From an uncultured Chloroflexia bacterium (lineage in GTDB: Bacteria; Chloroflexota; Limnocylindria; Limnocylindrales; CSP1-4), in contig CAWGQH010000002.1 of the NCBI GenBank assembly GCA_963824735.1, positions 42,066-106,065 on the forward strand: a stretch of 64,000 nucleotides of DNA, written 5' to 3'. Shown piece by piece: positions 50,505 to 54,561 of the stretch (its first letter is position 1; the number at the start of each line of letters is the position of its first letter). The position numbers and the translations under genes are program-made. The notes below the pieces were generated by a model. The model saw only the letters and a list, made by a program, of their open reading frames with translations. It ran no database searches and was not told the DNA's origin.

Positions 50505-51734
50505 TCAGAAGAACGTCGAGCACCACGGCTCGTCGGGCATTCGCAGCAGCGCTTCGACCGCGGCAAGCGCGCCATTCCGGTGCTCGTCGACACCGTGGAC
50601 GAGGACCGCGTCGCGCAACCTCGTCCCACCCAGGTAGGCCGCACTAAGCGCCGCAACGTCAAGCGACAGATCCGGGCTCCGGTCGGTGGGCCGGCAGGAG
50701 GTGCCGGCCGGACCGGCATCGAGGTCGACTCGGAGGCGGCCGGCCGGGGCCTCGGCGTCGACGACCTCCAGGACGACCCGCGTCTCCCGGTCGTACGTCC
50801 GTGTCTCGAGCGCTCGTGGGACATCGAAGATGCGGACCCACATCCCATCGCCCACGTCCGACACGACCGCCGCGCGCCCGTTCGTGAGCAACCATGGCAG
50901 CGGGTCGGACGGGCTGCGCCGCGGGGCCTTCACGGTGGCGACCCAATCGACCTCGGCGAGGAACCGCCACAACGCCGCGCTGGCTTCCTGGGTCAGTCCG
51001 TGGAGCTCGTCGACAAGGAGTGTGTTGCGTGGCTGGCGCTGCTCCCAACGCTCCTCCGGCCGGTAACGCGCGTAGCCGTCCACTTCGCCGGCGGCGTCGT
51101 GGTGGATGGCCAGGAAGCCGCTCCACTTCGCTCCCCAGAACTCGTCGCGGAGCCCGAGCTCGAAGTCCCAGGAGTGGTCGCGCCGGCGGATCTCGCCGAC
51201 CTGGCGGAAGCGCCACGCGTCGAAAACGCTGCGGAGGGCGGCGCGCGCGTCGTCGCCCGGTGTCACCAACTCCACGGACCCCTCCGGCGACCCGTGGAAC
51301 GTCGTCCGCTCGGCATCCAGCGTCCAGGTCGCCTCGCGGCAGGCCGGCCCGTAGCCGAAGCGTCCATAGATCCGGTACTCCGAGGCGTACAGCATGCCGA
51401 ACACCTGGCCGTGCTCGCGGATCGCCGCGTGCTCCGTAGCAACCATTGCGCGGAGCACGCCCTGTCGTCGATGCGTCGGGAGCACCGTCACGGCCGACAC
51501 GCCAGCGGCCGGGAGGCAGGCCAGCCCCGGGACGGTCAGCTCGGTTGGCCAGCTCCGGAACGTGCCGCAGATCTGCCCGTCGACCACGGCGGCCCAGGTG
51601 CGACTGCCCTCCCAGAGCGGCCAGATCTCGCGGGCGACCTGCTCGACGTCAGGTCGCTGGAGGAACGCGGTGCTGAGGGCTTCAACGTACGAGGCGGTTT
51701 CGTCCTCGCGGACGGGGCGAATCTCCAGGGCCAT
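50505..51734 (-). CDS. Eis-like GNAT acetyltransferase with SCP2 C-terminus
   Basis: VTVLPTHRRQGVL, LYASEYRIYGRFGYG, DGMWVRIFDVPRAL, AAYLGG, C-terminal FF. Confidence 0.92.
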   Translation of the reverse strand: MALEIRPVREDETASYVEALSTAFLQRPDVEQVAREIWPLWEGSRTWAAVVDGQICGTFRSWPTELTVPGLACLPAAGVSAVTVLPTHRRQGVLRAMVATEHAAIREHGQVFGMLYASEYRIYGRFGYGPACREATWTLDAERTTFHGSPEGSVELVTPGDDARAALRSVFDAWRFRQVGEIRRRDHSWDFELGLRDEFWGAKWSGFLAIHHDAAGEVDGYARYRPEERWEQRQPRNTLLVDELHGLTQEASAALWRFLAEVDWVATVKAPRRSPSDPLPWLLTNGRAAVVSDVGDGMWVRIFDVPRALETRTYDRETRVVLEVVDAEAPAGRLRVDLDAGPAGTSCRPTDRSPDLSLDVAALSAAYLGGTRLRDAVLVHGVDEHRNGALAAVEALLRMPDEPWCSTFF

Positions 51735-51803: not shown

Positions 51804-53144
51804 CTAGGCCGCGAATACGTCCTGTGGCTCGCCGATCTCGATCGGGTTGTTGACCGGGTCCGCACTCCACTCGAACCAGCCCCCGTCATAGACTGCCGCG
51901 CGCGGCCAGTCCTGGAGGTAGGCGTAGAACCACGTCTCACTGGCCCGCCAGCCGGTGCCGCAGTAGAACGCAACCCACTTCTCGGGGACGATCCCGGCCT
52001 CCGCCCAGTTGGCGGTGATCTCGGGATACGGCCGCATCGTGTTGTCGATGTTCCGGTAGTGCTGCATGTGGTAGGCGTCGGAGCCGCAGTTGCCCCAGAC
52101 GTCGCCCTTGATCCGTCCCGCCGGGCCGATGTAGTTGTAGCCGCTCACCGCGCCGATATGCTCGCGCCACGTCCGGATGCTGACGAGTGCCGCGCCGTCG
52201 GGATCGGCCAGCATCTCCTTGGCCTCCGCGATGTCGACGATCAGCTCCGGGCGCTGCGGGATTGTTGCGCCGAACTCCGGCACCGAGACGGGCTGGCGCG
52301 GCGTCGTCTCGACCGGGTTGCCTTCCCGGACCCACCAGTCGTACCCGCCGTCGAGGAGGCGGACATCGTCGACGCCCGCGTAGCGCAGGATCAGCGCGGC
52401 GCGGGTGGCGGCGATCTGCCCTGCCCGGCGCCCTGGCCACTTCTCGTTCGCATCGCCCTCGGTGTCGCGCCCGTAGAGGATCACGGTCGTATCGGCCGTG
52501 ATCCCGAGCGACCGCAGCGCATGATCGAGCTCGGCCGGCGTCCGGCGATTCCAGTCGGCCGGCGACTCGAGCCAGTTGGTGTCGAGATAGTGGGCGCCCG
52601 GGATGTGACCGTCGGCGTACTCCTCGGGTACCCCGAAGTTCACGTGAAAGAGCACGTGGCGGGTCGCCGGGGGCGCCTCGGGCCGTTCGCCTGCGAGCAC
52701 GGCCTGCAGCCAGGCGATGTGCACCAGCTTGTCGTAGTTCGCCAGGCCCTCGACGGGCAGGCCTTCGTCGGCCGCCCACGCGGCCCAGCCGGCGTCATAG
52801 CTGCGCACGTCCTCGAGGCCGCTCGCAAGCAGATGGTTCGCGAGCGGGACCGTGTCGTCCGGCCCGTCGCCATAGATCACGATGGAACGGCCGGGCTCAA
52901 CGCCCTTCGAACGGAGGAGGCGTTCGATCTCGGGCGCATCCACGGATCGCAGCCAATCGCCCGGGAACGCCACAGCGCCCGGGACGTGGCCGCCGCGAGC
53001 CTCGCCTCGGAGGCGCCAACCGTTGTAGGCGGCCAATGGGCGCACGTCGACGATCGTCAGTGCCGGGTCGCCCAGCCGGTCACGAAGCTCGTCGGTCGAA
53101 ATTGCCAGGCCGGTTCCCTCTTGAACGATGTGGAGCGTGCTCAT
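51804..53144 (-). CDS. three-domain rhodanese / thiosulfate sulfurtransferase (YnjE-like)
   Basis: GHVPGA, GHIPGAHYLDTNWLES, SGYNYI..AGRIKG, FYCGTGWRASE active loop, YDGGWFEWS. Confidence 0.92.
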   Translation of the reverse strand: MSTLHIVQEGTGLAISTDELRDRLGDPALTIVDVRPLAAYNGWRLRGEARGGHVPGAVAFPGDWLRSVDAPEIERLLRSKGVEPGRSIVIYGDGPDDTVPLANHLLASGLEDVRSYDAGWAAWAADEGLPVEGLANYDKLVHIAWLQAVLAGERPEAPPATRHVLFHVNFGVPEEYADGHIPGAHYLDTNWLESPADWNRRTPAELDHALRSLGITADTTVILYGRDTEGDANEKWPGRRAGQIAATRAALILRYAGVDDVRLLDGGYDWWVREGNPVETTPRQPVSVPEFGATIPQRPELIVDIAEAKEMLADPDGAALVSIRTWREHIGAVSGYNYIGPAGRIKGDVWGNCGSDAYHMQHYRNIDNTMRPYPEITANWAEAGIVPEKWVAFYCGTGWRASETWFYAYLQDWPRAAVYDGGWFEWSADPVNNPIEIGEPQDVFAA

Positions 53145-53323
53145 GGGTGGATCCCTCTGGATTGTCGTGCTGCAGTCAAACAAAAACCCCGCTCGGATCG
53201 AGCAGGGGTGACGGTGGGTGCTGCGCGGTTCGTCAGGCGCGTTCCGCGCTCATGGACACCATCTGCCCTGCCCGGTAGGGGGCAACAGCAACAGTTGAGG
53301 CGGATGCGCGTCGCGTGATCCAT
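53141..53323 (-). CDS. poly-cysteine leader peptide (MDHATRIRLNCCCCP...)
   Basis: TGT TGC TGT TGC at 53293-53282, directly downstream of a promoter and upstream of a sulfurtransferase. 60 aa as read, 29 aa if one C is removed from a C5 run. Confidence 0.7.
   Translation of the reverse strand: MDHATRIRLNCCCCPLPGRADGVHERGTRLTNRAAPTVTPARSERGFCLTAARQSRGIHP
53178..53209 (-). terminator. attenuator terminator upstream of the sulfurtransferase
   Basis: ACCCCTGCTCG-ATC-CGAGCGGGGT followed by TTTTGTTT on the minus strand. Confidence 0.8.
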
Positions 53324-53333
53324 CTGGCGCGGC

Positions 53334-53362
53334 ATTGTGCCACCTATATCTCCGATAAGCAA
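53334..53362 (-). promoter_or_regulatory. sigma70-type promoter of the leader / sulfurtransferase transcript
   Basis: TTGCTT, 17 nt, CACAAT with an extended -10 TG, 10 nt before the leader ATG. Confidence 0.6.
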
Positions 53363-53409
53363 GGTAGAACTTCGTTTCGTGGCGCAACCGCCGATCCGAG
53401 ATCGTTCGA

Positions 53410-53781
53410 TTCTCATCAGCCTGCTGGTCGGATAGCGTTCCGTCATCAACACGATGGCCATGTCGATCGCCGAACGAACGAGGGAGATCGGCATCAAGCG
53501 CGCGATCGGCGGAAGTCGCTTCCGCATCGTTCGCGAGCTCGTCACCGAGGCTGCGCTCATCGGGTTCATCGGCGGCGCCATCGGTCTGGTGCTCGGAACG
53601 CGTCGTCGTGCAGTTCGCGAACGAGGCGGGTCGTGAGTCGGGCACGGTCCTGTTCGAGATGACGATCGGGACCGCGCTGACAGCCGTGCTGTTCTCGACG
53701 ATCCTCGGCGCGGTCGCCGGGTTCGTCCCAGCTCTCCATGCCGCCCGGTTGGATCCGGTCACGGCACTGCGCTACGAATGA
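53410..53781 (+). pseudogene. C-terminal fragment of an FtsX/MacB-type ABC permease
   Basis: [54 protein letters not shown]. 5' part absent. Confidence 0.75.
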
Positions 53782-53796
53782 CCGGAGGACAGACCG

Positions 53797-54561
<765 letters not shown>

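Follow-up and report, generated by a model that had tools for sequence, protein, structure and literature searches.

We analysed a 64,000-nucleotide (nt) stretch of DNA, here called the window, from an uncultured Chloroflexia bacterium (GCA_963824735.1, contig CAWGQH010000002.1, positions 42,066-106,065 of the forward strand). The Genome Taxonomy Database (GTDB) places this organism in Bacteria; Chloroflexota; Limnocylindria; Limnocylindrales; CSP1-4, and its genome comprises 3.35 Mb in 19 contigs and is 80% complete. On the minus strand of the window lies a gene for a three-domain rhodanese-like sulfurtransferase that resembles the enzyme EanB. Our subject is the leader immediately 5′ of this gene, a candidate transcription attenuator in which a short upstream open reading frame (uORF) with consecutive cysteine (Cys) codons is followed by alternative RNA helices and an intrinsic terminator. 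The features are as follows, in window positions.

53357..53362, minus strand: -35-like hexamer TTGCTT, 17 nt from the -10-like box; a similar TTG box occurs in close relatives
53334..53342, minus strand: extended -10-like element, TGG plus CACAAT (hexamer 53339-53334), read directly
53323-53321, minus strand: start codon ATG of the uORF
53141..53323, minus strand: 60-codon uORF of the assembled sequence, with its TGA (53143-53141) overlapping the ATG of the gene
53250..53323, minus strand: leader frame as in the rest of the family, 24 codons if one base is absent near 53274-53282; stop codon TGA 53252-53250
53282..53293, minus strand: run of four Cys codons (TGT TGC TGT TGC) at which the ribosome is proposed to stall
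53263..53278, minus strand: candidate 1:2 hairpin, CTACC ... GGCAG in the window, with one mismatch; CTGCC-GAGCAG-GGCAG in the family
53257..53273, minus strand: segment 2, the 5′ strand of the antiterminator, GGGCAGGGCAGATGGTG, inside the uORF; core GCAGGG 53271-53266
53222..53250, minus strand: middle hairpin, starting at the stop codon; core GCGCGG 53249-53244 / CCGCGC 53228-53223
53199..53216, minus strand: segment 3, C-rich, common to the antiterminator and the 5′ arm of the terminator
53178..53207, minus strand: intrinsic terminator CCCTGCTCG-ATC-CGAGCGGGG (53207-53187) plus TTTTTGTTT (53186-53178); 9-bp stem, loop ATC
51804..53144, minus strand: EanB-like sulfurtransferase, 446 amino acids, ATG 53144-53142; Pfam PF00581 in three stretches

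The promoter-like boxes, the ATG, the Cys codons, the helices and the terminator had all been placed at these positions on the minus strand by an earlier reading made from the letters alone (the sequence-only reading). Its 60-amino-acid uORF with a TGA overlapping the ATG of the gene is likewise present as assembled, and the lower limit of the range it gave, 53141, is the last base of this TGA. As it described, GGGCAGGGCAGATGGTG at 53273-53257 is complementary to 53216-53200.

The same layout occurs in the upstream regions of seven of eight full-length orthologues from relatives, and a regular-expression pass found it in 47 loci. A covariance model, R1, recovered the leader at 52 of the 88 orthologous loci, with 48.9-120.8 bits, and two additional matches were weak (27.5 and 22.5 bits). 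The leader of the window scores 72.1 bits (E ~1e-17). All R1 matches lie on the strand of the gene and just 5′ of it. In a sample of 151 genomes from the order, the model matches exactly once in each of 25; by family, these searches gave matches in 24 of 108 genomes in the family of the window and in 0 of 42 genomes in a small-genome family. The orthologue begins just downstream of the leader in all 12 loci fetched from the order-wide search. Across 150 other genomes of the phylum, R1 gave a single weak match of 28 bits. Within the genome of the window, an nhmmer profile found no second copy of the leader. Given that the covariance model scores the window plus 51 more orthologous loci, the leader is more than a chance arrangement, and on this sequence conservation we take it to be a real, conserved, single-copy cis-regulatory element. 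A wider "Cys regulon" was also considered, and a scan of the genome for Cys uORFs before terminator-like sites gave only the C-terminus of an ordinary open reading frame (ORF).

Lineage labels were read off the 80 best loci in the species collection that code for relatives of the protein. Most of these loci are from metagenome-assembled genomes (MAGs) labelled Chloroflexia, Candidatus (Ca.) Limnocylindrales or Chloroflexota, and a smaller number carry the label Gaiellaceae, Thermoleophilia, Actinomycetes, Acidimicrobiia or Dormiibacterota. The sequence-only reading had set the element against Actinobacteria, which does not agree with these labels: the family of the window belongs to Chloroflexota, class Ca. 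Limnocylindria, and the organism is not an actinobacterium. No strong R1 match occurs in the loci labelled Gaiellaceae, Thermoleophilia, Actinomycetes or Dormiibacterota; one Acidimicrobiia-labelled locus matches.

Two alignments underlie the counts given below. Alignment A2 is a MAFFT alignment of the leaders, from which promoter and start-codon counts were taken (n=48). RNAalifold recovered only 5 terminator pairs from A2, because the arms of the hairpins are misaligned in it. It was replaced by a covariance-model alignment of 52 leaders, A5.

In the family, the reading frame of the leader has about 21-27 codons. At least two in-frame Cys codons are present in 51 of the 52 leaders, and three or four in 26. 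These codons lie in mid-frame, roughly 10 codons 5′ of the stop, and are mostly spaced C-x-C; the residues of the N-terminal part are variable and the Cys positions are kept. At the second Cys position, and likewise at the last one, ~49 of 52 leaders have the codon TGT, which makes up 21% of the Cys codons in the long ORFs of the genome. The stop codon stands at a fixed alignment column in 45 of 52 leaders, alternating between TAG, TGA and TAA, and follows a few codons later in the remaining 7. A short 5′ uORF with several codons for the sensed amino acid is thus present in the sequence, and its translation is predicted.

The 3′ half of the frame is conserved as GCC-NNG-CAG-GGC-AGG-TGG-TGT, corresponding to the peptide motif A-x-Q-G-R-W-C-x. 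In its NNG codon (A5 columns 30-32), positions 1 and 2 vary and position 3 is G in all 52 leaders. Moreover, the block GCAGGG(C) in the uORF repeats GCAGGG(G) of the 3′ arm of the terminator. Given the invariant third position and the copy of the terminator arm, this half of the uORF is conserved at the level of the RNA.

This pattern bears on a quite different explanation, in which the uORF is a gene in its own right and encodes a Cys-rich micropeptide with its own function, e.g., as a sulfur carrier, a metal binder or a partner of the sulfurtransferase. The hairpin and U-run would then be the terminator of that gene, and the sulfurtransferase would be expressed from its own promoter or by leaky readthrough. 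Such a gene would fit the retention of both the C-terminal A-x-Q-G-R-W-C-x and the Cys pattern across 52 loci, as well as the strong, nearly invariant terminator, and leader peptides with functions in trans are reportedly known (the peTrpL papers). However, the C-terminal conservation tracks RNA pairing rather than codons, with invariant third positions, varying first and second positions and the copy of the terminator arm, and the N-terminal half is not conserved apart from Cys. In addition, the distance from the U-run to the gene is only ~33-110 nt, and no second promoter-like box was noticed there. We therefore consider a free-standing micropeptide gene quite improbable; a dual role, as peptide and attenuator, is possible.

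Upstream of the frame, every one of the 48 leaders of A2 has A as the second and T as the sixth base of the -10-like hexamer, and TGN precedes this hexamer in 26 of them. In 46 of 48 leaders the start codon is ATG, and in 46 of 48 the -10-like box precedes the start codon by 8-10 nt. This spacing leaves no room for a Shine-Dalgarno leader, and is compatible with a predicted 5′ leader of 0-3 nt. The -35-like hexamer of the window, TTGCTT, matches the consensus TTGACA at only three of six positions, and a promoter scan called no promoter at the locus.

Apart from the terminator, 52900-53700 contains no terminator-like site, and a strict definition leaves only 14 such sites, including this one, across both strands of the 3.35-Mb genome. 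The family version of the terminator, ACCCCTGC-loop-GCAGGGGT plus a U-run, is nearly invariant among the 52 leaders, with 95% of cells paired. U-runs are visible in A5, about 33-110 nt before the gene start. An intrinsic terminator is therefore found between the uORF and the gene.

The middle hairpin exhibits compensatory changes in five of its eight pairs (UA 30 / CG 16; CG 30 / GC 14; GC 30 / AU 5). Taken jointly, the middle hairpin and the terminator have 91.6% of cells paired, versus 37-51% with slid partners. In the core of the 2:3 helix, where GCAGGG faces CCCTGC, 97.4% of cells are paired, versus 39-64% when slid. The distal part of this helix, in which the G-rich stretch pairs with the C-rich stretch before the terminator, shifts its register between clades. 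Its own partners give -9.33 kcal/mol versus -8.61 kcal/mol for foreign ones, and 7 of 5000 permutations reach the observed mean, a figure that is inflated because the sequences are related.

Just after the Cys codons, a CTGCC/GGCAG hairpin (A5 columns 25-29 / 36-40) has 88.4% of cells paired, versus 24-54% when slid. Two of its pairs show compensatory changes (7 cells), which 1 of 500 shuffles reaches. In place of this hairpin, the sequence-only reading had proposed a protector TGCCC/GGGCA; that helix is present in the window and absent from the orthologues, which have CTGCC/GGCAG instead. We rejected a more extended helix, in which the region of the first Cys codon would pair with segment 2: 78.3% of its cells are paired, yet this is no better than in shuffles. 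The sequence-only reading had also suggested examining orthologues for the Cys run and for covariation of the helices. The uORF was indeed kept and the middle hairpin covaries, but the protector is not conserved and the core of the 2:3 helix is invariant.

A covarying hairpin between highly conserved sequence blocks is also what a ligand- or protein-binding RNA switch might present, i.e., a riboswitch-like RNA or a target of an antiterminator protein, with the open frame being incidental. An Rfam scan of 52800-53800 with E up to 10 gave three chance-level matches far under their gathering scores, so no Rfam family matches the leader, leaving room for an undescribed RNA class. An incidental frame, however, would not readily account for an ATG, Cys codons and a stop codon that are retained together in one frame, the stop switching among TAG, TGA and TAA, or for Cys positions that are kept while their neighbours vary. 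Moreover, the middle hairpin, taken in this comparison as the sole covarying helix, is simple and has a variable loop, and there is no conserved pocket-like junction. We regard an RNA switch of this kind as very unlikely.

Taken together, these features make it probable that the leader is a trp-type transcription attenuator, which reads the supply of cysteinyl-tRNA through its leader peptide and thereby controls the EanB-like sulfurtransferase gene. In the mechanism that we propose, transcription would start at the ATG or a few bases 5′ of it, and the message carrying the frame would be translated with no 5′ leader or almost none. Under a shortage of Cys-tRNA, the two to four Cys codons would stall the ribosome. 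The CTGCC/GGCAG hairpin would keep a portion of segment 2 occupied except when the 5′ strand of this hairpin lies under a stalled ribosome; the footprint of the stalled ribosome would thus hide the 1:2 hairpin and leave segment 2 (GCAGGG plus the G-rich stretch) free. Segment 2 could then pair with segment 3 once the latter is made, the middle hairpin bringing both together, and the 2:3 pairing would prevent the terminator and let RNA polymerase read into the gene. When Cys-tRNA is plentiful, the ribosome would reach the stop codon and shield the 5′ arm of the middle hairpin as well as segment 2. This would leave segment 3 to pair with segment 4, and transcription would end at the U-run.

The leaders were also folded with ribosome positions masked, in line with the masking of the Cys codons that the sequence-only reading had called for. 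In RNA ending before segment 4, segment 3 pairs with the 3′ part of the uORF in 51 of 52 leaders with the ribosome on the second Cys codon, in 47 of 52 with the ribosome on the first, and in 33 of 52 with no ribosome. With the ribosome at the stop codon, the terminator is predicted in 43 of 52 leaders and the antiterminator in 0 of 52. In these computations, the leader therefore has an antiterminator that has a strand in common with the terminator, is free upon a Cys stall and is covered at the stop. The alternative pairings in the masked folds involve the terminator arm and not the gene's ribosome-binding site, the pairing of which was not examined systematically.

The copy in the window differs from the family at one point. 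Just after the fourth Cys codon, it is one base shorter than every relative in both A2 and A5, including all 51 other leaders of A5. When the frame is read back from the TGA at 53252-53250, the window yields the C-terminal motif of the family, but the Cys codons fall out of frame. Among public sequencing runs, none contained half of the words searched for, and the contigs compared here are those of relatives. Three of these contigs extend across 53273-53282, and every one has an additional base there. Two of the three derive from an RNA library, and the third is a DNA contig that shows 9 differences in 405 bases. The RNA-library contigs span 53166-53368 and cannot show where transcripts start or end or at what levels they occur, so they are not evidence of expression or termination. 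A second one-base discrepancy is found at ~53601, where the contigs of relatives have one base fewer and the neighbouring FtsX-like gene is broken.

The extra base in relatives and this second discrepancy make an assembly indel the likely cause. Most likely, the copy in the window is mis-assembled by one base and its true frame has 24 codons, with no identical contig covering the site. The sequence-only reading had suspected an error at the same place and removed one C, which gives a 29-amino-acid peptide with a stop codon at 53235-53233. This correction goes in the wrong direction, given that the relatives have one base more.

Alternatively, the frameshift could be real, in which case the frame would be translated through the terminator and coupled to the gene by the ATGA overlap, and the attenuator would be disabled or rewired. 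The sequence as assembled does read so, and the overlap of TGA and ATG is neat. Yet the overlap arises only from reading an unrelated frame, the 51 other A5 leaders and three of three bridging contigs have one base more, and the discrepancy at ~53601 points to assembly indels. A real frameshift is thus unlikely in our view. As a neighbouring observation, an FtsX-like permease and an ABC ATPase at 53454-54561 on the plus strand are split into several reading frames, which suggests either assembly indel errors or real pseudogenes.

The attenuator proposed in the sequence-only reading accordingly stands in its architecture (52 of 88 loci), its Cys codons (51 of 52 leaders) and its masked pairing (51 of 52), and falls short in covariation of the antiterminator core. 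Several points weigh against it. No covariation was found in the antiterminator core or in the terminator among the 52 leaders, because both sides are conserved, and we infer the pairing in these two helices from complementarity alone; for the core, this invariance is neutral as evidence. The full-length minimum free energy (MFE) states are nearly iso-energetic: free RNA is classified as terminator in 23 of the 52 leaders and as antiterminator in 23, and with the ribosome on the second Cys codon there are 31 terminator versus 15-20 antiterminator folds. The MFE fold of 53330-53130 is the antiterminator, with a z-score of only -0.8. This ambiguous full-length classification was replaced by the folds ending before segment 4, accompanied by a shuffle control. 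When segment 2 is shuffled, the pairing still forms in 475 of 1040 trials (46%), indicating that G-rich/C-rich composition accounts for some, though not the whole, of the effect. The leader sequences are mutually related, and the counts therefore overstate their independence. The start of transcription, actual termination and the response to cysteine are also things that we infer. In addition, the conserved C-terminal motif could reflect a functional peptide, the uORF of the window as assembled crosses the terminator to the ATG of the gene, and the enzyme does not belong to the recognised enzymes of cysteine biosynthesis.

Classical attenuators are the trp, his, pheA and ilv leaders in Proteobacteria and the trp and ilvB leaders in Actinobacteria. 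Such leaders (discussed, among other sources, in PMC1262725 and 10.1101/834739) share with ours a short uORF with codons for the sensed amino acid, mutually exclusive 2:3 and 3:4 helices, with the 1:2 helix being a candidate in our case, an intrinsic terminator before the gene, and a stop codon placed such that a terminating ribosome covers segment 2. Unlike them, the leader described here would sense cysteine, has no room for a Shine-Dalgarno sequence, occurs in a Chloroflexota lineage, contains an extra covarying hairpin nested in the antiterminator, and precedes a sulfurtransferase gene instead of a biosynthetic operon.

Polycysteine leaderless short ORFs (sORFs) that respond to cysteine supply are reported in mycobacteria by Canestrari et al. 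2020 (10.1101/834739). According to the available text of that study, uORF-mediated attenuation for cysteine had not been described earlier, and the control is translational: the downstream Shine-Dalgarno sequence is sequestered, and the authors excluded termination. As is proposed for the leader of the window, these sORFs are sensory uORFs with Cys codons at the 5′ end of a message, and one of them, Ms5788A, heads an operon with the thiosulfate sulfurtransferase gene cysA2 (10.1101/834739). They differ in that their Cys run is at the 3′ end of the sORF, whereas the Cys codons here lie in mid-frame and mostly as C-x-C. Moreover, our element has a canonical terminator/antiterminator, occurs in another phylum and has no sequence similarity to the mycobacterial sORFs. 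Relative to the class as that text presents it, the element is thus outside: it would work like a trp-type attenuator, and sense what the mycobacterial sORFs sense.

Cys leader peptides were also predicted in Actinobacteria by Seliverstov 2005, who in the available text describes them as "without obvious terminators" and leaves the mode of regulation unknown (PMC1262725). Those leaders and ours are alike in being short ORFs with runs of Cys codons before sulfur-metabolism genes, but here the terminator and the antiterminator are explicit and conserved. In the literature collection that we searched, no paper brings transcription attenuation by a leader peptide together with Chloroflexi. On cysteine codons in combination with a leader peptide and an antiterminator, this collection gave nothing nearer than Seliverstov 2005.

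Thus, in the available text of these sources, the previously reported cysteine-sensing uORFs are either translational (mycobacteria, 10.1101/834739) or without obvious terminators (Actinobacteria, PMC1262725). If our interpretation is true, the leader is a cysteine version of the classical terminator/antiterminator design, and is evidence that an uncultured soil lineage of Chloroflexota uses near-leaderless leader peptides and attenuation by intrinsic terminators. It would also supply a regulatory clue to the widespread EanB-like sulfurtransferases, namely that they are wanted when cysteine is short. With ~150 nt, the leader is a compact, well-defined part that is suited to reporters.

The solved structures nearest to the enzyme are the PDB 6H98 / 6KTV series, which are named only "Sulfurtransferase" and which we take to be EanB, the O2-independent (anaerobic) ergothioneine synthase of Chlorobium limicola. 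The match to 6H98 has 432.8 bits, with about half of the residues identical over 428 residues, versus 293 bits to YnjE of E. coli (3IPO/2WLR). The label "YnjE-like" given in the sequence-only reading is consequently imprecise, as the scores are 433 bits to 6H98/6KTV versus 293 to YnjE, and it holds at the level of the fold only. SGYNY and YCGTGWR are kept in the alignment to 6H98. In EanB, roles have been assigned to Tyr353, Cys412 and Arg417 (PMC10903977). Their equivalents in the window are Y336, C395 and R400, with spacings of 59 and 5 that fit and with the numbering offset deduced by us. No NCBIfam family exceeds its cut-off for the enzyme.

The enzyme and EanB of Chlorobium limicola thus have equivalents of the catalytic Tyr, Cys and Arg in common and differ in that the methyltransferase partner was not found here. 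The histidine methyltransferase EgtD/EanA (PF10017) was not detected in the genome of the window, which is 80% complete, and 111 genomes of the family gave only 12 marginal partial PF10017 matches, with at most 24.6 bits. As this methyltransferase was not found, a role of the enzyme as an ergothioneine synthase is doubtful. Many EanB-like enzymes are described as having no known function (PMC9516567). Judging from the proposed induction under cysteine shortage, the enzyme probably has a role in sulfur acquisition.

Cysteine is not the only residue that recurs in the leader peptides. A Met codon is present among the Cys codons in 26 of 52 leaders and His codons occur in 20 of 52, with many leaders placing His codons ahead, in the pattern H-H-H-C-M-C-H. 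In the N-terminal part of 42 peptides, Cys accounts for 18.6% and His for 11.8%. Compounds of the 2-thio-histidine type, such as ergothioneine, are built from three precursors, namely Cys, Met (via S-adenosylmethionine) and His. These Met and His codons, together with the EanB-like cargo and genomes in which the methyltransferase was not found, raise the idea of a sensor for multiple precursors (Cys, Met and His) and of an enzyme that is something other than a simple thiosulfate sulfurtransferase. The EanB-like enzyme, induced upon starvation for sulfur amino acids, would then perform C-S chemistry on an imported thio-imidazole or related heterocycle (e.g., desulfurating environmental ergothioneine), and so feed cysteine synthesis. 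We consider this scenario improbable.

Downstream of the sulfurtransferase gene, at a distance of 70 nt, the window contains an Eis-like GNAT acetyltransferase gene (50508-51734, minus strand; Acetyltransf_9/17 + SCP2_2). This arrangement occurs only in close relatives, and no downstream gene is conserved, so the acetyltransferase was rejected as a conserved operon partner. Among 16 loci tested elsewhere, the next gene encodes a GFO/IDH/MocA oxidoreductase in 8 and an MFS transporter in 3; the rest have other genes.

Orthologues that do not have the leader present other upstream elements. In MAGs labelled Gaiellaceae, Thermoleophilia and Actinomycetes, an AT-rich, partly palindromic box with the core TTTACTTTGTA is located 40-110 nt 5′ of the gene (loci L059, L067, L069-L071, L074, L081, L082, L084, L088, L097, L104, L105, L107 and L110). 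This box is probably a transcription-factor operator. A different inverted repeat, TGTTGAC ... GTCAACAAT, precedes the orthologous gene in loci L061, L065, L075, L078 and L080. The same enzyme thus seems to be under at least three kinds of control across lineages.

Some further loci (L054, L101, L083, L087 and L109) have diverged leaders that are not matched by the model. In L054 and L101, the peptide reads M-I-A-H-R-C-x-R-D-M-C..., and the terminator of L054 has an unrelated sequence. In the Dormiibacterota-labelled loci, the uORF ends in ...C-S-C-(T/N)-stop and is directly followed by a hairpin, with no clear U-run.

The genome of the window (G000) contains a second leader of this general type, at ~149250-149420 on the minus strand of contig C9 (locus L127:1290-1420). 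It consists of an ORF encoding M-S-H-F-Y-F-Y-R-G-P-A and a strong terminator with an 11-bp stem and a U-run (fold z-score -5.1), 51 nt upstream of a gene for DAHP synthase (PF00793, E 8e-84). This leader is probably a Phe/Tyr-sensing attenuator of aromatic amino-acid synthesis, and on this basis leader-peptide attenuation appears to be in use in this organism. Other strict terminator-like sites in this genome lie 1-71 nt before long ORFs: at ~19451 on C7 (minus strand) before a purA-like gene, at ~301796 on C14 (minus strand) before an unknown ORF, at ~128377 on C18 (minus strand) before an ABC ATPase gene and after a 27-codon ORF, and at ~10164 on C4 (plus strand) before an infC-like gene. 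These four sites may be further 5′ attenuators.

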